Below are positions 1 through 8,536 of a DNA stretch of 8,536 nucleotides, piece by piece. A model generated the notes under the pieces. That model did no database searches. It saw nothing but the letters and a program-made list of their open reading frames with translations, and had not been told where the DNA came from. Location: positions 1-8,536 of the IMG/VR virus record IMGVR_UViG_2737471865_000006. The stretch is one strand, 5' to 3'. The DNA is from a virus. Its lineage: Duplodnaviria; Heunggongvirae; Uroviricota; Caudoviricetes. Made by a program: the position numbers and the translations under genes. Position 1 is the stretch's first letter; every line of letters starts with the position of its first letter.

Positions 1-12
1 TTCACCGGATGC

Positions 13-699
13 TTACGTTTTATGTGCATGCAGCTCATCAATAATGGCGCAGTGGATGTTCAGACCATCCAGGTTGTTTGCATCCGAGGAAAGCGGTTCA
101 AATTTTGATGCGCTCTGCTCCTGGTAAATCGCCAGCTTGTTGAAATCAAACAACCGCCCGAGTGTCGACCGGGCTTTTCTGACCATATTTTTGGCGTCTT
201 CAAACACAATTCTGGCCTGGTCACGCGTGGTGGCGGCTGAATACACCTCAGCACCGCCTTCACCATCTGCCCCCGTCATATACAGGCCGATACCCGATGA
301 CAGAGTTGATTTTGCGTTTTTACGGGCGACTTCGTTGTACGCCGTCCGGAACCGGCGCACCATCACCGGACGTCCGCTGCCATCGCTGCGCATGACGACT
401 TCCCCGGTCTCTTCATTCACCAGCGGAATGACAAAACCAAAAATATTAATGAGGATAAATACATGCCAGTCCATCAGTTCAATGGGCTGGCCTGCCAGCG
501 CCCCTTTTACATGAGGCACAAATTTGTAGAAATTCAGGATGTGCTGCGCACGGGGTTCACTGAAATAAATCCCCCGCTCTTCGCCGTACTTCAGATCATC
601 AAGAAAACGCTGGCAGGCCAGGCGGACAAATTCGCCAGCAACAATTTCTCCTGCAACAACACGTTCGGCGTAGCGGATCCCGTCAGCCACTTTTGCCAT
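13..699 (-). CDS. Terminase large subunit, N-terminal ATPase region; frame closes with TAA at 13-15 after 228 codons
   Basis: Translation has a P-loop-like motif VARKNAKST and a Walker B-like motif CAIIDELHA. ATG at 697-699 overlaps the TGA stop of the upstream small terminase gene (TGATG). Full-length large terminases are roughly twice this length. Confidence 0.75.
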   Translation of the reverse strand: MAKVADGIRYAERVVAGEIVAGEFVRLACQRFLDDLKYGEERGIYFSEPRAQHILNFYKFVPHVKGALAGQPIELMDWHVFILINIFGFVIPLVNEETGEVVMRSDGSGRPVMVRRFRTAYNEVARKNAKSTLSSGIGLYMTGADGEGGAEVYSAATTRDQARIVFEDAKNMVRKARSTLGRLFDFNKLAIYQEQSASKFEPLSSDANNLDGLNIHCAIIDELHAHKT

Positions 700-1181
700 C
701 AGTCTCTCGCTTTTAAAAGCTCCGCCAGCGGATCAACATCATCCGGTCCGGCGATATTTACTTTAGCCCGGCTTGCCGGTGACATACCAAACTCTGCAAG
801 CATTGCCCGGATCCGCTTCCAGGCATCCGCTTTCATTGCCGCCGCGGGGTGCGCCTTAATCAGTACATCACCGCTCTGCGTTTCCGTGCGGTAGGTATAC
901 CCCTCAACATCGAGTGTTTCGCAGTGATGCCGATATTCGGTGTAGGCTTCCACCAGCAACTCGAGCGCACGCGCATCAAGCTGAGAAATGATCCCTTCCG
1001 CATTCAGCTCTTCCGCCATTCGCCTGAACCAGTACTTCCCCTGAGCCCCTAAATGCTGCGGAATTTTAGGAAGACCTTTTTCATCCTTTTTAGCGGTTTT
1101 TTTGTGGTCTTTAACGGGGCGCTTTGAGGGGTTGCCTCGAATCAAATGCAGGCGTGGCGGGGTTTTCGGAGGTCCTGACAT
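699..1181 (-). CDS. Terminase small subunit, P27 family
   Basis: 160 aa; basic N-terminal region followed by ...AWKRIRAMLAEFGMSPASRAKV, typical of P27-type small terminases; sits directly upstream of the large terminase with stop/start overlap. Confidence 0.8.
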   Translation of the reverse strand: MSGPPKTPPRLHLIRGNPSKRPVKDHKKTAKKDEKGLPKIPQHLGAQGKYWFRRMAEELNAEGIISQLDARALELLVEAYTEYRHHCETLDVEGYTYRTETQSGDVLIKAHPAAAMKADAWKRIRAMLAEFGMSPASRAKVNIAGPDDVDPLAELLKARD

Positions 1182-1329
1182 AATCGGTCTTACCTATCAA
1201 TCGTTTGTTCACATTTCCAAAAAAAAGTTTTCGAACCTGCGGCGATGTGAGGAAGGGTCAGGCGGCGGTACTGAGCAGCCAGGGTTGCAGAGATTTGACC
1301 CGCCCCTCCCTTACAGATTAGAACGATTA

Positions 1330-1680
1330 TCAGTTGATGCGTTCACGCGCTGTTTTCGCCTTGTGGCATGGCCAGCACAGGCTCTGCAGATTACCGTCTG
1401 CATCCGTACCGCCATGCGCTTTCGGAATGATGTGGTCCACAGTTCTGGCTTCAACGGCTCTCCCATTGCGCAGGCAGTTCTGACACAAATGATTATCACG
1501 CTTCAGTATGCGCGCACGTATGGCATCCCATTTCGAGCCATAGCCACGCTGGTGGCGGCTCAGTCCGCGTTGATGTTGTGTCCAACCTTCGCCGCGATGC
1601 TTATCGCAGTAGCCAGAACTGTCCGTCGTTGTGCCTGCACAGCCTCGCTTACGGCATGCACGAGGGATTTGTGATGGCAT
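1330..1680 (-). CDS. HNH endonuclease, packaging-associated
   Basis: Cys-rich N-terminus (CRKRGCAG...CDKH) and HNH core (DHIIPKAHGG...N...CWPCH). Start chosen at the ATG at 1678-1680, which has an AGGAG ribosome-binding site 9 nt upstream, rather than the ORF-track start at 1716. Position immediately before the small terminase matches HK97-type packaging modules. Confidence 0.8.
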   Translation of the reverse strand: MPSQIPRACRKRGCAGTTTDSSGYCDKHRGEGWTQHQRGLSRHQRGYGSKWDAIRARILKRDNHLCQNCLRNGRAVEARTVDHIIPKAHGGTDADGNLQSLCWPCHKAKTARERIN

Positions 1681-1722
1681 AGAATTTCGCTCCTCTAAAA
1701 AATATTCTGCTCTCACCGTCGG

Positions 1723-1905
1723 TCAGTTCTGCATACACTGCCGGACACTATCAACAATTTCACAGACCTGAGAAGCTGTATCGAAAAGCTGGCGCGCCTT
1801 ATCCAGGCTGACGCAGCCCACCAGGAAAAAAGGCACCAGTATCGCTACCAGTGCCCATTTCACCGCCGTTCGCGGCATTCTGTGTGTCCAGTGTTTTCGC
1901 GTCAT
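1723..1905 (-). CDS. Small lipoprotein, 60 aa, function unknown
   Basis: Basic N-region, hydrophobic core WALVAILVPFF and lipobox LVGC; GGTGGTGA ribosome-binding site before the ATG; short Cys-containing mature part. Not proline-rich like lambda Rz1. Confidence 0.5.
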   Translation of the reverse strand: MTRKHWTHRMPRTAVKWALVAILVPFFLVGCVSLDKARQLFDTASQVCEIVDSVRQCMQN

Positions 1906-1989
1906 ATCACCACCAACGCACAGCCCAAATCAGAACAGCGACCGCCACAAGGCGGATTGCAAAGGCCGTTGCCCGAATAAAATCAGCAC

Positions 1990-2187
1990 TCATCTGTTTA
2001 AATAAATTGTTGTGTATGCAACCAGTGCAGTACAAATAATCCATGCAACTGGCGTCAGTATATGTCTGATGCCCCGGCATACCGCGATGATTTTTGCGGC
2101 ATCATCAGCCCCCTGCGGGGTGGTTTCTGCTTTTATCATCAGATCATCTCCAAATTTATCTTTCGTCGTGTTAGGCTTTACTGGCAT
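1990..2187 (-). CDS. Hypothetical small protein with C-terminal transmembrane segment
   Basis: ATG at 2185-2187 preceded by GGGGA; C-terminal hydrophobic stretch PVAWIICTALVAYTTIY. No recognisable family; coding status uncertain. Confidence 0.3.
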   Translation of the reverse strand: MPVKPNTTKDKFGDDLMIKAETTPQGADDAAKIIAVCRGIRHILTPVAWIICTALVAYTTIYLNR

Positions 2188-2229
2188 GAATGATCCCCAT
2201 GCGCATTCACAAAATGAATCCATAAACAC

Positions 2230-2261
2230 AAAGCCCCGATTGCTCCAACAACCGGGGCTTT
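2230..2261 (-). terminator. Intrinsic terminator-like hairpin downstream of the endolysin gene
   Basis: Perfect 9-bp stem AAAGCCCCG / CGGGGCTTT (2230-2238 with 2253-2261) and a 14-nt loop; T-rich flank on both strands. Confidence 0.5.
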
Positions 2262-2268
2262 GCTTTAT

Positions 2269-2646
2269 TTATCGTTTCAACTGAAAGTGAGGCCCATCCT
2301 TTAATGACCGCCACTCACCGCCCCATTCGATGGGGGTATTCAGCTCTGCGGCAGCCTGCTTAAATGCCTGCGCTATTTTCTCATACAGAGGCAAGTCCCA
2401 TGACACCTGGCTGCCAACCCAGGCAACAACATCCACCGCATCACCGGTCAGGTGGCGGCTGTTCATGGTCTGGCTTTTCCCTTCCGCGACCAGCTGTTTC
2501 TGGCGTTCTTTCGTGCGCAGCCCTTCCGTAATACCGAAATCAACCTCCGTCAGCTCCAGCGCACGGCGAACGACAGCAACCAGCTGTGGTTTAACGCCCT
2601 CCAGATTCTTTTCGCTGCGACGACTGAATCTGAATTTACCCGACAT
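2269..2646 (-). CDS. Endolysin, peptidase M15 family (phage T5 Lys-like L-alanyl-D-glutamate peptidase)
   Basis: Motifs KFRFSRRSEKNLEGVKPQL, RRALEL, SRHLTGDAVDV (His...Asp zinc-ligand spacing) and a C-terminal His match the T5 endolysin pattern as recalled. ATG at 2644-2646 has GAGGTGA upstream and lies 2 nt after the stop of the preceding gene; a GTG at 2652 is an alternative start. Confidence 0.8.
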   Translation of the reverse strand: MSGKFRFSRRSEKNLEGVKPQLVAVVRRALELTEVDFGITEGLRTKERQKQLVAEGKSQTMNSRHLTGDAVDVVAWVGSQVSWDLPLYEKIAQAFKQAAAELNTPIEWGGEWRSLKDGPHFQLKR

Positions 2647-2648
2647 AT

Positions 2649-2924
2649 TCACCTCAACAATGGAAAGATTTTTGTGACGTTCCCGCGTGCGCGTATCACC
2701 AGCACGCAGAACAGCAGGTTAAAAAACACTTCCAGCCAGCCCGTTGCTAACGGGCGACCACACAGATAGCTGAGGGGCGCAAAGGCATACAGCAGCATCA
2801 GCAACCAGGCCAGCCATGACATCAGCGGTTTATGTCTGGAATCACGACGACGATAAAAAAAGAGCGTCAGCACGATAACCGTGCATAACGCCACATTCAG
2901 CAATCCGGGAAGGTTACTTAACAT
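2649..2924 (-). CDS. Small membrane protein in lysis cassette (holin/antiholin-like), about 91 aa
   Basis: ATG at 2922-2924 preceded by GGAGGAGG; three hydrophobic segments; overlaps the holin 3' end by 11 nt and is coupled to the endolysin start. Confidence 0.55.
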   Translation of the reverse strand: MLSNLPGLLNVALCTVIVLTLFFYRRRDSRHKPLMSWLAWLLMLLYAFAPLSYLCGRPLATGWLEVFFNLLFCVLVIRARGNVTKIFPLLR

Positions 2925-3306
2925 TGCCGCCTCCTCCACCCCGCAGGCGGGAGAACAGGCCGGACACCAGCGATGCAATATCCTGCTGGTGGATGAACGA
3001 GAGAATCTTCACCGACACCACCGCCACCAGCACCGCACACAGTGCATCCGCCGATGTACCGTCATAACCTGTTTTTGATGCAATCCAGGCTGACAGCACA
3101 TGCGCACCCAGCACGCCAACGATAAACGACACCAGAAAATGCGCCGCCACACGCCAGGCTGAAAGCGCCTGCGGCATCGTTGCCACAAATAACGCCCCAG
3201 CGAACGCCCCAAACACAATCCCGAAATCCGTTCCGGTAAACAGCCCGAATACCGTCGCCCCGCCGAGCGCCGCAGCCGTACCGGAACCGGACAAGGGTTC
3301 AGACAT
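2914..3306 (-). CDS. Putative holin, about 130 aa, multi-pass membrane protein
   Basis: ATG at 3304-3306 with AGGAG 7 nt upstream; Gly/Ala-rich hydrophobic helices; first gene of the lysis cassette, directly upstream of the endolysin. Confidence 0.6.
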   Translation of the reverse strand: MSEPLSGSGTAAALGGATVFGLFTGTDFGIVFGAFAGALFVATMPQALSAWRVAAHFLVSFIVGVLGAHVLSAWIASKTGYDGTSADALCAVLVAVVSVKILSFIHQQDIASLVSGLFSRLRGGGGGNVK

Positions 3307-3320
3307 ACTTTTTCTCCTGT

Positions 3321-3346
3321 AAATAAAAAAGGGCCACTGTCGGCCC
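3321..3346 (-). terminator. Intrinsic terminator immediately upstream of the holin ribosome-binding site
   Basis: Minus-strand RNA GGGCC-GACAGU-GGCCC followed by UUUUUUAUUU (3321-3330); the holin Shine-Dalgarno begins about 4 nt after the U-run. Confidence 0.55.
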
Positions 3347-3432
3347 GTAAAAAAACAACACCCCGTCAAAGGCACCCGCAGATACCTTTTGTGTGGTGTT
3401 ATCTGATGTGATGTGCGCCGGACGTGGCGCGG

Positions 3433-3460
3433 ATATAAAAAAGGCCCGCCGCAGCGAGCC
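3433..3460 (-). terminator. Intrinsic terminator downstream of the AraC-family gene
   Basis: Minus-strand RNA GGCUCGC-UGCG-GCGGGCC (7-bp stem including one G-U pair, tetraloop) followed by UUUUUUAUAU; about 25 nt after the stop at 3486. Confidence 0.6.
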
Positions 3461-3485
3461 TGTTTTCAATGAGTGCAAAATTCAA

Positions 3486-4229
3486 TTATTCTTGAGTAAC
3501 ACTTAAACTCATCTCATTGAATGCAGCCATCCTGTAACCTGCCGGTGTAACACCAAAATAACTCCTGAATACGCTGATAAAATAAGATGTAAAATTATAG
3601 CCACACTGAGCAGCGATTCTGTTGATGGCGCAACGAGATTGATTCAACAGCATTGCTGCCATTCTCATTCTCTCTGTAAGCAACAACTCACTGAAACAGG
3701 TGCCTTCTTCTTTCAGTCTTTTTTTTAACAAACTTTCACTGATACATAACCGCGAAGACACATCTCTCAGAGTCCAGTTTGCTGCAATGTCCGTACGAAA
3801 CAATGCACTAAGCCTGTCACTAATATTGCCAATACACGCGGTCAGAAACGACGAAAACATTTTCTCTGATGAGAAAAACGCCAGACACGAAAAGGAAAGC
3901 ATTTCCGCTAAATTGTCCGTATGAATCTTTTCCTCACAAAGATAATCAATCAGGATGCCCATCAATTCTGCCTTGGGAAAACTCACGCAAAGATATCGTG
4001 GTATTTGCCGGACTAAAACTACATCCTGTTTTTCGTCTCCACACAACAGGTAACGGATAATTGTCGATTCACTGAGACTTATTCGCCGAAAACATTCCGA
4101 AAAGGGCAATAACGATCCAGCTCCCCCCCTGACAAGAAGTGCACTACCACTTTCCAGAGAGAGCTCTTTTCCTTCAAAGAGCACAACAAACGGGGAATGA
4201 ACAAAAACAACAGAACAAGCTTCATTCAT
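3486..4229 (-). CDS. AraC/XylS-family transcriptional regulator, AppY/AdiY/GadX-like group
   Basis: C-terminal helix-turn-helix signature SESLLKKRLKEEGTCFSELLLTERMRMAAMLL...QCGYNFTSYFISVFRSYFGVTPAGYR; N-terminus MNEACSVVFV resembles the AppY family as recalled. Start set at the ATG at 4227-4229 (247 aa), not the TTG at 4289. Markedly AT-rich relative to flanking phage genes. Confidence 0.8.
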   Translation of the reverse strand: MNEACSVVFVHSPFVVLFEGKELSLESGSALLVRGGAGSLLPFSECFRRISLSESTIIRYLLCGDEKQDVVLVRQIPRYLCVSFPKAELMGILIDYLCEEKIHTDNLAEMLSFSCLAFFSSEKMFSSFLTACIGNISDRLSALFRTDIAANWTLRDVSSRLCISESLLKKRLKEEGTCFSELLLTERMRMAAMLLNQSRCAINRIAAQCGYNFTSYFISVFRSYFGVTPAGYRMAAFNEMSLSVTQE

Positions 4230-4262
4230 ATCAATTGCCCTGACATTACTGGTCACAAGATA

Positions 4263-4290
4263 AGTATATATCGATTTACAAAAATACAAG
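4263..4290 (-). promoter_or_regulatory. Candidate sigma70 promoter for the AraC-family gene
   Basis: Minus strand -35 CTTGTA (plus 4285-4290), 16-nt spacer, -10 TATACT (plus 4263-4268), about 30 nt upstream of the ATG. Match by eye only. Confidence 0.35.
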
Positions 4291-4350
4291 CCGAAAGACC
4301 AGTATTCGCAACCACCAGCGCGTTTAACGTCCTGTACCGTTTTTCAGGCA

Positions 4351-4377
4351 TAAAAAAACCCGCTCAGTGGCGGGTTT
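4351..4377 (-). terminator. Intrinsic terminator between the ORF6N gene and the AraC-family gene
   Basis: Minus-strand RNA AAACCCGC-CACUGA-GCGGGUUU followed by UUUUAUGCC; palindromic, so it could act in either direction. Confidence 0.55.
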
Positions 4378-4452
4378 AAGCTGTTTGGCGTAGTAACCAC
4401 TCTTAACAGGATATTCAACTTTTTACGATCGTAAAGCGTTCGGGGAAAATTT

Positions 4453-4758
4453 TTAAAACCGTTCCAGAGTGCATACCATCGCATCGGCGGGTAGTTTTTC
4501 CGTGAAGAGGATGAGGTGCTTTGTACGCGGTGCAACTAAGTTACTTTGAGTAACCTTGTTCTTAAATTCCCGCAACTCAGCCCCTTCCAATTTGAAGTAG
4601 TGTTTCCCACAAACAAAACGCTCGGCATTGCGTGTATAGTTCACTTTGATGTTATTAGTTTCGGTGCCATAAAGTTGTGCCAAAAGCTCGGTAGTAATGA
4701 CAGGGATTTGGTTATGGGTGATCGGGGAAAGAGTTTCAACTGAGATTTGAATAGCCAT
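4453..4758 (-). CDS. ORF6N-domain protein (phage antirepressor-like DNA-binding domain), possibly C-terminally truncated
   Basis: Motif LAQLYGTETNNIKVNYTRNAERFVCGKHYFKLEGAELREFKN ... LFTEK fits the ORF6N pattern; AAGGA ribosome-binding site 7 nt before the ATG; first ORF downstream of tR'. Confidence 0.5.
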   Translation of the reverse strand: MAIQISVETLSPITHNQIPVITTELLAQLYGTETNNIKVNYTRNAERFVCGKHYFKLEGAELREFKNKVTQSNLVAPRTKHLILFTEKLPADAMVCTLERF

Positions 4759-4911
4759 AGGATGATCCTTTTTCTATGTGAATCATCACCACTGCTGACG
4801 CCAATCAGTATGGTGGTGAACTGTGCAGGGTTGGCGTAACCGGGAAAAAGGAACCGGCGCGGATCGCTCCGCCCCCACACAGCCCACCATTGAGATGTGA
4901 CAGTGCAAACG

Positions 4912-4937
4912 ACAATAAAAAAGACGCTGGCGCGTCT
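4912..4937 (-). terminator. tR'-like terminator of the short late transcript
   Basis: Minus-strand RNA AGACGC-GCCA-GCGUCU followed by UUUUUAUUGUC, about 70-75 nt downstream of the predicted pR' start site. Confidence 0.55.
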
Positions 4938-4997
4938 GTTGTCGCCTTTTTCATCCGGGACGCCAATCCCGACGCCAGATTTTGCTGGCGCGTGAGG

Positions 4998-5027
4998 AAT
5001 ATAGCCCCGGACAATGTGTCTGGTCAA
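4998..5027 (-). promoter_or_regulatory. pR'-like late promoter immediately downstream of Q
   Basis: Minus strand -35 TTGACC (plus 5022-5027), 18-nt spacer, -10 TATATT (plus 4998-5003), starting 5 nt after the Q stop. The initial transcribed region has hairpins CGCCAG-N6-CTGGCG (4973-4990) and CGGGA-N6-TCCCG, as expected for a Q-utilisation/pause region. Confidence 0.5.
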
Positions 5028-5031
5028 GCTC

Positions 5032-5418
5032 CTACATGATTCGTTCTACGTATCTGTCCATCTCCAGTCGGATATCAAGCATCATCAACATGCCATCAAT
5101 AACCCCTTCCGCTTTCTGCAGGCGCTTGCCAATACAGGTATCCGAACACCCATGCTTTCGTGCCAACCCCATAAAAGTCATTCCACCTACGTAATAATCC
5201 ACCAACAAATCGTGCAAATCCTGATTTTTCTTGTTCAACCGGGCCATACAGCCACAAATTATCATTGCATCATCATCAGAACACTGAGGGCGTGATTTCA
5301 CTTTCGGCGGGATTAATCCTTTAAAACCAGCAGCGATTGACGCCCATGACACATCTTCGTGATTGTTCGCAGCCCATGCTCCCCACCGCTCCATAACCTG
5401 CTGAATATCACGCACCAT
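5032..5418 (-). CDS. Late-gene antiterminator Q (phage 82 / QuuD-like)
   Basis: [21 protein letters not shown]...[14 protein letters not shown]...LLVDYYV...[16 protein letters not shown] pattern of Q antiterminators. ATG at 5416-5418 with AGGTGA 5 nt upstream; overlaps the rusA 3' end. Confidence 0.85.
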
Positions 5419-5779
5419 CGTTATCACCTGTAATTTCGTAAATCTTCACGCCCAACCGCCCACCAGGAACAGGCAGTCCGCGCACAATATTGATTTCATC
5501 AAACTGCTCGTCGTCTATGAGAAGTCCGGCATGCGTCAGCGCATCCAGTGGTGCCTTCAGGATATTGTCCAGGTCGCGGCGGCGCTTATCCGGTGGCTCT
5601 GCAATAATTTTTATTGCCAGCCTTCCGGACAGGTTTAATTTCAACCGCTGCTGGCGAACAATTAGTGCCACATCACGGCGATAACGCTCCCCTGCTTTTG
5701 ATACAAAATATGTGTTGCCACGACGTCGCCAGTAAGTATTCACCGTCGGCGGATAAGGCAAAACAAACTCTATACGCAT
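5408..5779 (-). CDS. rusA: Holliday junction resolvase RusA
   Basis: [16 protein letters not shown]...[29 protein letters not shown] matches RusA conserved motifs; AAGAGG ribosome-binding site 7 nt upstream. Confidence 0.85.
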
Positions 5780-5791
5780 CAGTAACCTCTT

Positions 5792-6841
5792 TTACCCGAG
5801 CACGCCGGTTGCAAAGGCGTGATCAAGAAAACGAAAAATTAAATCAACCTGGGAACCATGCTTTTCTTCGAACGCCAGCGGATCCGCATGAAGTTCGTTG
5901 TGATGTTCCCGGCACAACGGTAGCGTGAAAATATCGTGGGCCTTTGTTCCCATCCCTCCCTGACCGTGACCAATCAGGTGATGGGGATCGTCGGCTGGCT
6001 GACCACAACACGCACACGGCTGTGTCTTCACCCAGCGCGTATATTTCTCATTTACCCAACGGCGACGTTTAGGTCGCCTCATGAAAGATTCCGGAGACTC
6101 CGGATCAACGGTGATGCATACCACCGTCTTTTCCTGTGGTGGGTTCTGTTGCTGGTGGGCATGAGGCAACGGCGCAAGATTTTTTGTGCGCTGCTTCAGT
6201 ATGCTGGTGGCGGTCTGCTCTCCCGGTACGATGTCGCTTTCGCGGTACAAGGAGCGGATTTTTTCCGCACGTAACCCCAGAGAACGACGTAATACTGCCT
6301 CCGGAAGCGCGTCCGCCACCTGATTGCAGACCGCCCACCAGGATAATTCAGCCAGCGACAATTCCCGCTCCTGCGTGCCATTCATTGCATGGCGTATGAC
6401 GTCAATCATCCATGCTGACAGGTTTTGATGAGCAAGTTGCCCGAGTGATTCGGATGTCTGGTCACGCAACTGGTTGTCGCAGTGCCAGCACAACACCATC
6501 GCGCCGGTACCGTAACGATGTATGACGATTTCACTGTGATGATAGTCACCATGAGGCCACTGGCAGGATTTGACATGACGCAACAGCCAGTCAGACAGTG
6601 CCCCAGCGCCGCCAGCAGCACGAATCACCCGCTCATCGCTGAAAAATGGCAGTAATGATTTATCCTCCGCCAGCGGCTGGCGAACGGCAGGGACGACTCC
6701 GGACGGCAGACCGCGCATGCTTTTCGGTTCAGGCTCCACCAGCACTCGAGGGTTATGAAATACTTGCATGGATTCACGGCCCGGCCTAAGGACCACCAGC
6801 CCGAGTTCCGGTACCAGAACAGGTCGAAGTAATATCCGCAC
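5792..6841 (-). CDS. DUF968-like prophage protein (YdfU-like) with C-terminal Cys/His HNH-like motif
   Basis: Large nin-region ORF with C-terminal CACCGQPADDPHHLIGHGQGGMGTKAHDIF...CREHHNELH. Start proposed at the GTG at 6839-6841, which has GGAGGT upstream and follows the upstream gene's TAA by 1 nt, giving 349 aa. The ORF-track start at 6913 would overlap the upstream gene. Confidence 0.6.
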   Translation of the reverse strand: MRILLRPVLVPELGLVVLRPGRESMQVFHNPRVLVEPEPKSMRGLPSGVVPAVRQPLAEDKSLLPFFSDERVIRAAGGAGALSDWLLRHVKSCQWPHGDYHHSEIVIHRYGTGAMVLCWHCDNQLRDQTSESLGQLAHQNLSAWMIDVIRHAMNGTQERELSLAELSWWAVCNQVADALPEAVLRRSLGLRAEKIRSLYRESDIVPGEQTATSILKQRTKNLAPLPHAHQQQNPPQEKTVVCITVDPESPESFMRRPKRRRWVNEKYTRWVKTQPCACCGQPADDPHHLIGHGQGGMGTKAHDIFTLPLCREHHNELHADPLAFEEKHGSQVDLIFRFLDHAFATGVLG

Positions 6842-6842
6842 G

Positions 6843-7121
6843 TTACCTCCAGATCCGTTGCTGGTATGTGCGGGATGGGCGCGGTGGGCGTTCGGAATAA
6901 GGGAGCCTGACATAGATTATCCAGTGACGATAATCGAGGCTGAGGGCTTTCTTAATCTCGTATCCGCGTCTGCGATAGTTATGAATTAGCCATTCGGCCT
7001 GTTCTTCAGTACATGGGTCATGCTGGAACCAGTCAGATTTGAAAGTGCGGGAACGCCGCCCGTGCCTGCTGGCAAAGACGGCAGAATCATCAGAATTGTG
7101 TAATTTGGTATCGTGCGCCAT
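6843..7121 (-). CDS. Hypothetical small basic protein, 92 aa, upstream of the DUF968 gene
   Basis: ATG at 7119-7121; ORF-track start at 7202 rejected because it overlaps the terminator at 7194-7218; stop is translationally coupled to the DUF968 start. No recognisable family. Confidence 0.45.
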   Translation of the reverse strand: MAHDTKLHNSDDSAVFASRHGRRSRTFKSDWFQHDPCTEEQAEWLIHNYRRRGYEIKKALSLDYRHWIIYVRLPYSERPPRPSRTYQQRIWR

Positions 7122-7193
7122 CGGTTGTCTCTGCTGGCGCAGCAGGTGCCAGTTGTTCAGGCTGGCGTGCGAATTGTAAACCAGAATGCCAGG

Positions 7194-7218
7194 AAAAAAC
7201 AAAAACCGCCGAAGCGGG
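7194..7218 (-). terminator. Intrinsic terminator with UUCG tetraloop
   Basis: Minus-strand RNA CCGC-UUCG-GCGG followed by UUUUUGUUUUUU. Confidence 0.55.
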
Positions 7219-7417
7219 TATGCTAAAACAAACTGAAAGTAATATACCGGACTTGTAAAGGAACGATAGAATAATTATTGGATTAAACCCTGACTCAATC
7301 CAGATTTCATAGGCAACAACTACGGACTAATCATCACAGTCATGTTTGATAGACTTAGTCCACATTGGGTGAGGGTTTACGGCGTTTTCACTAATAATTT
7401 ATCGTCCAAGCTATACA

Positions 7418-7810
7418 CTACTGCCCTGTTTTAACGAAGTTTTTAAAGGAAACAACTGCCTGATAGGGGTTTGGTTGACAGCCAAACATATTATCGCAAA
7501 AAGGCTTGATGAAAATTCTTGAGGATCCATCTTCATTTGGCATTTTACTCACTTGATAAGCGAGGAATGGACTATTTGGAGAGGGATTATAAGTGGAAAT
7601 TAGCGTGTCTGTCGCCGTTTGAATTTTCCATGAGGAATTATTAGCCAACCAGAATTGCGCTCGTTTCCAATAAAAGTCACATTGCTTTTCATCATTACAT
7701 GTTAGTGGCTTCATTGCTTCTGCTTTCAACGCTGGATCGACCTTTGCTGCACACCCTCCCAACATTACTGTTGCAATCATTACACCTGCGACTAAAACAA
7801 GTTTCTTCAT
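7418..7810 (-). CDS. Secreted lipoprotein, 130 aa, unknown function (AT-rich cargo gene)
   Basis: Signal peptide MKKLVLVAGVMIATVMLGGC with lipobox LGGC; four further Cys in the mature part; lower GC than flanking genes; bracketed by terminators on both sides. Confidence 0.7.
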   Translation of the reverse strand: MKKLVLVAGVMIATVMLGGCAAKVDPALKAEAMKPLTCNDEKQCDFYWKRAQFWLANNSSWKIQTATDTLISTYNPSPNSPFLAYQVSKMPNEDGSSRIFIKPFCDNMFGCQPNPYQAVVSFKNFVKTGQ

Positions 7811-7861
7811 CTCCCTGCCCCATCAATAAAAGTTCGGTTCTCTAATAACTAGAGTTAATCA

Positions 7862-7884
7862 ACGGAAAAAACGCCGAAGCGGGT
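7862..7884 (-). terminator. Terminator-like hairpin downstream of hok
   Basis: Minus-strand RNA CCGC-UUCG-GCG followed by UUUUUUCCG, about 70 nt after the hok stop; short stem; nearly identical in sequence to the 7194-7218 element. Confidence 0.45.
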
Positions 7885-7953
7885 TAAGTGCGGGTGCGTT
7901 GAGGATGCCTGACACATCAGAGGTGGCGAGGGATTTCTCCCCCGCCAGGTCTC

Positions 7954-8109
7954 TTACTCCTCAGGTTCGTAAGCTGTGAAGACAGCGACCTCCGTCTGGC
8001 CGGTTCGGATTCGTACCTCGCAGAGGTCTTTCCTCGTTACCAGTGCCGTCACAATGACGGTTAAACAGATGACGATCAGGGCGATTAACATCGCCTTTTG
8101 CTGCTTCAT
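7954..8109 (-). CDS. hok: Hok/Gef-family type I toxin (small membrane-depolarising peptide)
   Basis: 51 aa MKQQKAMLIALIVICLTVIVTALVTRKDLCEVRIRTGQTEVAVFTAYEPEE, which matches HokD/HokC (Gef) as recalled; ATG at 8107-8109 with AAGGAG 8 nt upstream. Confidence 0.85.
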   Translation of the reverse strand: MKQQKAMLIALIVICLTVIVTALVTRKDLCEVRIRTGQTEVAVFTAYEPEE

Positions 8110-8166
8110 AGCCTGCTTCTCCTTGCCTTTCGGCACGTAAGAGGCTAACCTAGATTTGCCGTTCAT
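7954..8166 (-). CDS. mok: Mok-like overlapping reading frame (in-frame N-terminally extended Hok)
   Basis: In-frame 19-codon extension MNGKSRLASYVPKGKEKQA upstream of hok, ATG at 8164-8166 with GAGG 9 nt upstream; same arrangement as mokC/hokC as recalled. Confidence 0.55.
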   Translation of the reverse strand: MNGKSRLASYVPKGKEKQAMKQQKAMLIALIVICLTVIVTALVTRKDLCEVRIRTGQTEVAVFTAYEPEE

Positions 8167-8230
8167 AGATTGAGCCTCAGATTAATGTTAAGCGTCTTGC
8201 AGGACGCGTAATGTTAACTGGGGCTTTTCT

Positions 8231-8266
8231 CTATCTGCCTTTGGTGTTCATGCCTGAGGCAGATAG
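8231..8266. repeat. Perfect 10-bp inverted repeat in the hok leader region
   Basis: CTATCTGCCT (8231-8240) and AGGCAGATAG (8257-8266) with a 16-nt loop. Adjacent are two TAATGTTAA direct repeats (8183-8191 and 8209-8217) flanking the hairpin GCGTC-N6-GACGC (8192-8207). Confidence 0.6.
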
Positions 8267-8465
8267 CCTCAAGCACCCGCAGCAATTCTACTTAACTCAC
8301 CTCACCTCGCCAATATAAAATCAATCAGAAAGGCGATCCATAAGAACAACAGCAAGGCAATAAATTGCCATTACAGCGTAAGCATCCGGTGAAGGCGCAT
8401 TGCCGGCCGTCGTAAACCACGCCATTCTGCAGGCTCTTCCTTTATATGCAAAAGTGAGAAACCTG

Positions 8466-8536
8466 ATGGCAAAAAAAATGACCCCGGCGCAGCGACGCCA
8501 GCACTACGACGCCTGGCGCGCCTTCTCCGCTGACGA
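8466..8536 (+). CDS. 5' end of an unidentified plus-strand gene running off the window
   Basis: ATG at 8466 then MAKKMTPAQRRQHYDAWRAFSAD with no stop before the window end; divergent from hok. Only 23 codons visible; weak ribosome-binding site. Confidence 0.3.
   Translation, partial: MAKKMTPAQRRQHYDAWRAFSAD

Follow-up and report, generated by a model that had tools for sequence, protein, structure and literature searches.

How does a single gene of foreign base composition come to lie exactly at the transcription terminator of a toxin–antitoxin locus, and do the terminator copies on either side of it take part in its entry? This question is raised by a stretch of 8536 nucleotides (the window; positions 1 to 8536 of IMG/VR virus record IMGVR_UViG_2737471865_000006) that represents the nin/late region of a lambdoid Escherichia coli prophage, with its genes on the minus strand. 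The window finds its top database match, with 99.9 % identity, in a prophage on the chromosome of E. coli PF9285. Behind a hok/sok type I toxin–antitoxin locus, two direct copies of the 19-nt motif AAAAACCGCCGAAGCGGGT enclose a gene for a small lipoprotein; a first reading made from the letters alone (the sequence-only reading) had taken this arrangement for cargo inserted at the hok terminator, possibly by recombination between terminator copies. The interpretation favoured here, with slightly better than even confidence, is that positions 7220–7865 plus one repeat copy (665 bp) constitute a moron: a horizontally acquired, low-GC, single-gene cassette that entered at the hok/sok terminator via recombination through the hairpin formed by the motif.

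Morons supply prophages with virulence, defence and exclusion genes, and their entry at ‘safe’ intergenic positions is mostly ascribed to rare illegitimate recombination. The definition of the moron and the Juhala–Hendrix concept have been reviewed (PMC3594210). A locus that is preserved both before and after such an entry is therefore of interest beyond the single gene.

Occupied and empty sites

The locus offers a clean before/after pair, in which one allele has a single hairpin and the other hairpin–cassette–hairpin. Strain ETEC6334 (L001) has a lone perfect hairpin between hok and the 92-aa gene that, in the window, lies beyond the cassette. The two sequences are colinear on both sides with identical flanks, and the window is exactly 665 bp longer. 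This is the comparison by which the sequence-only reading had asked to be judged, namely whether relatives carry hok followed directly by the gene at 6843–7121 with one copy of the motif, and it bears out an insertion at the hok terminator. The 665-bp insert has both its junctions inside the hairpin and T-run, and the same is true of two other cargos found at this site (L082 and L194/L288, see below).

Among 5426 complete E. coli genomes, a 151-nt junction-spanning probe detected the uninterrupted empty junction in 2158. The whole 1.7-kb region including the cassette is present in 255, and thousands of the other genomes contain both flanks with the middle missing. The unit is thus no universal nin-region gene, the finding that the sequence-only reading had named as fatal to itself. 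The cassette DNA, including its 198-nt 3′ part, occurs in E. coli solely at the hok terminator of the 255 genomes. The 646 bp between the repeat copies have a GC content of 39.2 %, compared with 54.8 % and 51.7 % in the flanks, and contain one open reading frame (ORF), so that the AT-rich unit of roughly 650 bp with a 130-aa lipoprotein gene was correctly described from the letters. Three of the features by which morons are recognized are present: clean absence from close relatives (L001; 255 occupied versus 2158 uninterrupted sites), deviant base composition, and an own terminator, here the hairpin and T-run at 7192–7219.

Carrier loci were compared in a set of 66, made up of fetched E. coli records, IMG/VR loci and the window itself, with readable subsets of 61–64 loci. 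Of 61 loci, 50 have the two repeat copies 665 or 664 nt apart and the other 11 have them 596 or 595 nt apart, a difference that corresponds to a 68-nt indel polymorphism at approximately 7303–7370 in the alignment of the cassette 3′ region. The long form, which is that of the window, is found in ~223 of the 255 carrier genomes and the short form in ~30. The 68-nt segment holds a GGACTAA...TTAGTCC inverted repeat, and its end-points share a short CATAGG/AGG repeat, which suggests that the indel may have arisen by simple slippage. On the coding strand, no ORF of at least 20 aa lies wholly inside the 3′ region, and Rfam gave no match inside the cassette. A small RNA or gene remnant in the 3′ region was considered and is unsupported (fold z −0.36, no better than for shuffled sequence; no Rfam match or ORF; found nowhere else in E. 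coli).

Some carriers have been rearranged further. IS1203 lies between hok and the lipoprotein gene in E. coli TW10573 (L005, 2104–3317) and 503829 (L006, 2153–3366), and in TW10573 it truncates the 5′ end of the lipoprotein gene, leaving a coding sequence (CDS) of 348 nt instead of 393. In IMGVR_UViG_2663762648_000006 (L053) the order is hok, hairpin, a short rem-type flank, a second hok, decayed hairpin, lipoprotein gene, hairpin. The second hok unit lies ~1.3 kb beyond the 3′ end of the first hok, and the hok–lipoprotein unit may have moved or been duplicated as a block.

A terminator hairpin on both sides of the cassette

The window contains exactly two copies of AAAAACCGCCGAAGCGGGT, an exact one at 7201–7219 and one with a single mismatch at 7866–7884, separated by 665 nt from start to start; the 18 of 19 match noticed by eye was therefore real. 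No further match with up to three mismatches occurs elsewhere in the window, and in dinucleotide-preserving shuffles the mean was 0.01 matches, with two matches in 0 of 200 shuffles. Allowing one 7-nt gap extends the repeat to 28 versus 21 nt (7192–7219 versus 7864–7884), a marginal gain over the ungapped reading. The coding-strand sequence of the motif, ACCCGC-TTCG-GCGGG-TTTT, forms a hairpin with a UUCG loop and continues into a T-run. It is an intrinsic terminator, with the stem ACCCGC/GCGGG(U), a UUCG loop and a U-run.

That the host locus is a hok/sok system is indicated by its Hok/Gef ORF (PF01848) and its sok-type RNA region (RF01794); hok is annotated as hokD in RefSeq relatives, and a promoter-like TTGGCG-17-TAGAAT is located at 8313–8285, just upstream of the predicted 5′ end of the hok mRNA. 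The segments GGGUGCUUGAGG and CCUCAACGCACCC are presumably the tac/fbi pair, assigned by analogy with the hok mRNA of plasmid R1. Since the hairpin lies 7 nt downstream of the fbi-like CCUCAACGCACCC in this tac/fbi arrangement, it is the terminator of the hok mRNA.

The two copies have fared differently. The proximal (hok-side) copy reads ACCCGCTTCGGCG-TTTTT(T)-CCG in 63 of 63 readable carrier loci and lacks the 3′ half of the stem in every one of them; its 3′ side (TTTTCCGTTGATTAAC) can be aligned to the leader in homologous cassettes. This uniformity argues for one original insertion followed by spread among prophages. The distal copy is a perfect ACCCGCTTCGGCGGGTTTTG in nearly all carrier loci, and that of the window bears a private G-to-T stem change at 7206–7208 (GCGGT, not GCGGG; 1 of 64 loci). 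The empty-site hairpin has a predicted fold of −13.8 kcal/mol with a 7-bp stem (z −3.4). For the distal copy of the window the value is −7.8 kcal/mol, roughly half that of the perfect copy, and the proximal hairpin of the window is absent from the minimum-energy fold. Thus, both terminators downstream of hok are weakened in the prophage from which the window derives. The features of the locus are collected in Table 1.

Table 1. Positions of the hok/sok locus, the lipoprotein cassette and neighbouring genes in the window
Feature	Position	Strand	Remarks
hok/sok locus	8278–7954	minus	first in gene order of the minus strand
Presumed tac element GGGUGCUUGAGG	8278–8267	minus	predicted hok mRNA 5′ end
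hok mRNA leader and sok antisense region (5′ part of locus)	8104–8278	minus	Rfam RF01794 sok, 111.7 bits, E 3.9e-26
hok toxin CDS, 51 aa	7954–8109	minus	Pfam HOK_GEF PF01848, E 3e-23; mechanical ORF extends to 8166
Presumed fbi element CCUCAACGCACCC	7892–7904	minus	complementary to hok mRNA 5′ end; 7 nt upstream of terminator
Proximal (hok-side) repeat copy	7864–7884	minus	ACCCGCTTCGGCG-TTTTTT-CC; decayed hybrid of hok terminator, 3 stem pairs left
Leader of lipoprotein gene	7811–7863	minus	diverged copy of promoter/5′ untranslated region module ..CCGTTG.. / TGnTAGGAT / TTTTACTGATGGGGATAGGGAT-ATG
Lipoprotein gene, 130-aa precursor	7418–7810	minus	follows hok/sok; lipobox LGGC, Cys20, Ala at +2; phrog_16082, E 2.6e-84, function not assigned
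Non-coding 3′ region of cassette	7220–7417	minus	198 nt, AT-rich, 36 % GC
Distal repeat copy	7192–7219	minus	resident hok terminator ACCCGCTTCGGCGG-TTTTT-G-TTTTTT-CC, now ending the lipoprotein unit
92-aa gene	7121–6843	minus	phrog_1212, function not assigned; right after hok terminator in empty-site prophages
DUF968 gene	6913–5792	minus	after 92-aa gene
RusA gene	5779–5408	minus	after DUF968 gene
Q antiterminator gene	5427–5032	minus	after RusA gene
ORF6N and AraC-family regulator, two holins, M15 endolysin, HNH, small terminase, large terminase			following in this order
Lysis cassette	2269–3375		far from lipoprotein gene

Other cargos at the hok terminator

Alleles downstream of hok were classified from fetched IMG/VR loci matching the hok 3′ end and hairpin. 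The empty allele has one hairpin, the rem allele one and the lipoprotein allele two. Two further cargos are also enclosed by hairpins. In L082, L335 and L290, genes for a 216-aa protein and an HTH_3/Peptidase_M78 (IrrE-like) protein lie between two perfect hairpins 1835 nt apart, and in L194 and L288 a small protein and a Fic/Doc protein are encoded between two hairpins ~845 nt apart. The cargos at the hok site start directly after the proximal T-run, and a −35-like GTTGACA, GTTGTAA or GTTGATT follows 12–15 nt on. In relatives and other hok-site cargos, the hairpin and T-run are followed within ~15 nt by a −35-like GTTGACA, GTTGCG or GTTGATT; the promoter of the window itself is degenerate.

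In 782 kb of DNA from related phages the 11-nt core of the hairpin was counted 36 times, a density of 0.046 per kb (about once per 22 kb). That three unrelated cargos sharing one site should all end in the hairpin is well beyond this background.

The leader module and homologues in other genera

Homologues of the lipoprotein with 57–85 % identity are present at differing prophage positions in other genera. In Enterobacter hormaechei (L008) the homologue is located between the tape-measure gene and gpM; in Pantoea (L011, L012 and L070) it follows a Bro-N/Ant gene or lies between gpI and gpJ; in Phytobacter (L013) it is part of a prophage remnant; and in Yersinia enterocolitica (L197–L199, 4314–7275) a 57 % homologue lies between parDE and sieB, in the prophage immunity region. 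The Yersinia homologue is directly downstream of a toxin–antitoxin locus, as in E. coli, but without the conserved leader or hairpin. In two of the Pantoea loci (L011, 4374–4721; L070, 3374–3784) the stop codon of the homologue overlaps the start codon of another, unrelated lipoprotein gene (115–136 aa, e.g. MQKILLALCALGLSGC...), which suggests a two-gene envelope module.

The sequence-only reading had named the same lipoprotein without flanking repeats as an observation that would speak against it. In E. coli the gene always lies between two copies, in keeping with that reading; the homologues of other genera lack the distal repeat. Their occurrence elsewhere without the distal repeat points to a gene that is mobile among phages, and its status as cargo is not refuted.

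The same hairpin as at hok is located 75 nt upstream of the ATG in both L008 and L011 and 72 nt upstream in the window, and the sequence from hairpin to ATG is homologous across the three (alignment A6). In the same alignment the −10 of the window leader is degenerate, with TATTAG in place of the extended −10 TGnTAGGAT of its relatives. Coincidence as the source of these upstream hairpins was rejected, as −72/−75 recurs in three contexts against a core background of 0.046 per kb.

A search of IMG/VR with the pattern TAGGATT-N5-12-TTTACTGATGG, derived from the leader, returned 87 loci. A ~75-nt leader module (loci L202–L285) consisting of a T-run and −35 region, an extended −10 TGATAGGAT and a 5′ untranslated region TTAGCCTCATCTTTTACTGATGGGGATAGGGAT-ATG stands before no fewer than 15 unrelated ORFs of temperate siphophages of enterobacteria. 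Signal peptides or lipoboxes are encoded by most of them, and the unit is usually placed between the tape-measure gene and gpM. In phage PHB10 (L196, 1890–1956) the leader stands in front of a 267-aa lipoprotein. The hairpin is found 19–35 nt past the cargo stop codon in 28 of 73 module-bearing loci, behind at least four unrelated cargo genes; in the tail slot it sits immediately before gpM, often preceded by ACTTA, the 5′ flank also seen at hok. In phage HK639 the hairpin follows moron genes 17–18, matching the tail slot. The recurring architecture is leader–cargo–hairpin, and the unit of the window is one such cassette placed right behind the resident hairpin.

Entry of the cassette and competing explanations

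Entry by short-homology recombination through the hairpin is supported by the other unrelated cargos that are bounded by the identical hairpin. A cassette circle carrying one hairpin could cross over with the resident hairpin to give hairpin–cassette–hairpin; alternatively, unequal exchange between hairpin-bounded units may have produced the same arrangement. Phage or host recombination functions would catalyse the exchange. Recombination between terminator copies, as initially proposed, thus remains the best available mechanism, and it is backed by the other hairpin-bounded cargos. In the T4-type phages RB49 and phi1, cassettes are flanked by promoter-early stem-loop elements (PeSLs) that recombine with one another; mini-circles have been detected, with crossovers in or next to the stem-loop (PMC2839356).

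Several observations weigh against hairpin-mediated entry of a moron. No circular intermediate, transcript or protein has been observed. The cassette DNA occupies one E. coli site only, with no sign of ongoing mobility, and the leader module is present once per genome in all 13 matching cultured phage records, unlike the multi-copy PeSLs. A promoter and terminator scan of the window detected neither of the hairpin copies and gave no promoter ahead of the lipoprotein gene; the distal copy was missed by this simple scan because the copy in the window has fewer than five stem pairs. Nothing in sequence, profile or fold searches ties the lipoprotein to a known exclusion or virulence family. The remaining two points, the commonness of the hairpin and the hok-site cargos that lack a second copy, are also what the strongest competing explanation draws on.

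According to that explanation the repeat is irrelevant: an ordinary moron with its own terminator entered downstream of hok by illegitimate recombination, and the hairpins are alike because this terminator is favoured and convergent. The exact 19-mer is very common, being present in at least 120 viral contigs from many environments, so some coincidences of identical terminators are expected by chance or convergence, and the core recurs about once per 22 kb even in related phages. The rem allele (as in K-12 Qin), whose homology extends only from the hairpin towards hok, and L347, with a second, different HTH-M78 pair and one hairpin only, are both cargos at the hok site without a second hairpin. 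In addition, the classical view of moron accretion invokes no flanking homology and does not consider it dependent on conserved flanks (PMC2839356). Against this stand the three unrelated hok-site cargos, each beginning right after the resident T-run and ending in the identical hairpin; if the hairpin is assumed to make up ~10 % of terminators, a rough estimate puts the probability of finding it with three of five cargos below 0.01. The ACTTA 5′ flank common to the hok terminator and the tail-slot cassette terminator, and the similar distance of the hairpin upstream of the lipoprotein ATG in three contexts, likewise fit convergence poorly. Irrelevance of the repeat is therefore considered unlikely, although it is the alternative to be taken most seriously.

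A reversed polarity, with hok–hairpin–lipoprotein–hairpin as the ancestral state from which the empty alleles were derived through deletion between the direct repeats, is improbable. Direct repeats of 13–28 nt do promote deletion, a crossover in the shared ACCCGCTTCGGCG would restore a perfect single hairpin, and some of the empty sites could be secondary losses. However, the GC content of the cassette is foreign, 255 carriers face 2158 uninterrupted junctions, homologues from other genera are at unrelated positions in their prophages, the cassette is missing from rem-type and plasmid hok loci, and the identical decayed proximal copy in all readable carriers fits a single gain.

A non-autonomous transposable element (such as a miniature inverted-repeat transposable element) or an integron-like cassette, with the 19-nt repeat as target-site duplication or attC-type site, would account for a precise, direct-repeat-flanked insert at a hairpin and for the use of the hok site by several cargos, but is rejected as very improbable, given that terminal inverted repeats are absent from the cassette ends, neither the cassette nor the adjacent DNA encodes a transposase or integrase, a duplication of 19–28 nt is far longer than usual target-site duplications, the cassette is at no other site in the 5426 genomes, and attC sites measure 57–141 nt with a GTTRRRY core, which the 16-nt hairpin lacks.

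Acquisition of a moron through the hairpin is accordingly retained as the favoured interpretation. A far broader version of it is doubtful: that the UUCG-loop terminator ACCCGCTTCGGCGGG-Tn serves as a generic att-like joint in enterobacterial temperate phages, at which leader–cargo–hairpin cassettes (exported proteins, toxin–antitoxin systems and defence-like pairs) leave in circular form and enter again wherever a resident copy exists, by a recombinase-independent process or a recombinase not yet known, comparable to T4 PeSLs or integrons, with the lipoprotein as the founding phage-borne member of a receptor-blocking envelope family.

Predicted consequences for hok transcription

As the proximal stem has been lost and the −10 of the cassette is degenerate, hok transcripts probably read through into the lipoprotein gene. 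Transcripts from the hok promoter would then stop at the distal hairpin, the lipoprotein would be expressed in the lysogen, and the hok mRNA would acquire a 665-nt 3′ extension past the fbi-like element. The insertion is thus predicted to rewire a type I toxin–antitoxin transcript, with hok losing its own terminator. Alternatively, decay of the proximal copy may reflect selection against loss of the cassette by repeat-mediated deletion.

The lipoprotein

The precursor has the signal peptide MKKLVLVAGVMIATVMLGG-C20, with the lipobox L-G-G-C at residues 17–20. Among 46 diverse members of the family Cys20 does not vary, and four other conserved cysteines (38, 44, 105 and 111) probably form two disulfides. 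Ala at +2 implies sorting to the outer membrane under the E. coli +2 rule. The prediction is thus of an exported, disulfide-bonded product that carries a lipid on Cys20 and is sent to the outer membrane.

The gene had been reported to match nothing recognizable by eye, neither Bor, Rz1 nor MliC; searches of Pfam, NCBIfam and PADLOC likewise returned no match, and it is not Cor either, as the PHROG match to Cor (phrog_1119, E 0.007) covers only residues 1–44, that is, the signal peptide. Spanin or Bor identity was rejected for lack of similarity and because the gene and the lysis cassette are far apart. A profile search against PDB sequences gave nothing relevant to the lipoprotein, a scan of genome contigs for relatives gave no confirmed locus, and a literature search for the RefSeq protein WP_000737636 found nothing. 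The AlphaFold2 model (predicted local distance difference test score 83) has a generic fold, and its likeness to DUF3568/Flpp3 lipoproteins and the N-terminal domain of BamC is at fold level only.

A profile search of 1.84 billion representative proteins, clustered at 50 % identity, retrieved 1134 clusters at E ≤0.001 and 504 at E ≤1e-10. Some members are fused to C-terminal PDZ domains, and two distant members are in ordinary chromosomal contexts. By these predictions the protein belongs to a large bacterial envelope lipoprotein family without a Pfam model or assigned function, of which one clade has been captured by phages.

The neighbours of the gene and its homologues (gpJ and tail genes, parDE, sieB, hok), together with the toxin–antitoxin and defence-like cargos that share the hok site, fit a gene that benefits the lysogen. 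The leading guess is envelope or surface modification of this kind, for example receptor masking or superinfection exclusion. Taken by itself, receptor masking or superinfection exclusion is a tentative assignment, possible but on balance not the expected outcome, and another envelope or virulence function is held at a similar level. Superinfection exclusion and serum resistance, the roles put forward by the sequence-only reading, are guesses. HK97 gp15, a tail-operon moron for an exclusion protein (cited by PMC3594210; also among the references of PMC11364771), provides a precedent.

Other genes of the window

A second low-GC block (42–43 % GC) extends over 3400–4800 of the window, between the Q antiterminator and the holins. 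Its minus-strand ORFs, 3486–4289 and 4453–4758, encode an AraC-family regulator (HTH_18/HTH_AraC) and an ORF6N-domain protein. The block is likely another moron, at the slot where Stx phages carry stx.

Comparison with known systems

Like the hok/sok loci of plasmid R1 (parB) and the E. coli chromosome (hokA–E), the locus comprises hok, a sok-type RNA, tac/fbi-like elements and a terminator just 3′ of the fbi-like element. Carriers of the cassette differ in that the fbi-adjacent terminator is without a stem and the next terminator comes 665 nt on, past a foreign gene.

Cor (phi80, N15, T1-like) and Llp (T5) are also small phage lipoproteins with an outer-membrane-type sorting signal, and the present family resembles them in having homologues beside tail-tip/host-specificity genes (gpJ) in Pantoea and Enterobacter prophages. 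There is, however, no sequence relationship or fold match: Pfam, NCBIfam, PADLOC, PHROG and PDB profile searches gave no similarity to Cor, Llp or Bor over the mature domain, and the mature protein is larger (~110 aa) with four cysteines. The analysis flags a family of more than 1000 clusters of small lipoproteins, predicted to be disulfide-bonded, without a Pfam model; one of its clades has been captured repeatedly by phages, beside tail-tip genes, toxin–antitoxin loci and sieB.

With the morons of lambdoid phages (HK97 gene 15, lambda bor and lom) the cassette shares an extra gene without counterpart in close relatives, deviant GC content, a 3′ terminator, placement between conserved phage genes, homologues in the classic tail-operon moron slots and, by prediction, a likely cell-envelope product made in the lysogen. 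It differs in being bounded by direct copies of one specific terminator hairpin common to other cargos, and in having an apparently degenerate promoter of its own behind a decayed hok terminator, which suggests read-through from hok.

A mechanistic parallel is offered by the PeSLs of RB49 and phi1 (Arbiol et al. 2010, PMC2839356), in which a terminator stem-loop beside a sigma-70-type promoter flanks single accessory ORFs, indels between close relatives end inside the motifs, and the mechanism put forward is homologous exchange between short regulatory elements present in several copies, proceeding through circular intermediates. At the hok site, too, the indel end-points fall within the repeated motif. 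The genomes are temperate lambdoid or siphoviral instead of T4-type, the motif is another one, and the leader is single-copy, compared with dozens of PeSLs per genome.

The before/after pair, the two further unrelated cargos at hok and the leader–cargo–hairpin units elsewhere point to terminators as short homology joints. Such joints would target cassettes to transcriptionally insulated sites, which has been shown experimentally only for T4-type phages. A moron as such is a known kind of element; what is unusual here is that it is hairpin-bounded, that it lies at a toxin–antitoxin terminator acting as a cargo hot spot, and that its leader and terminator are common to many cargos.

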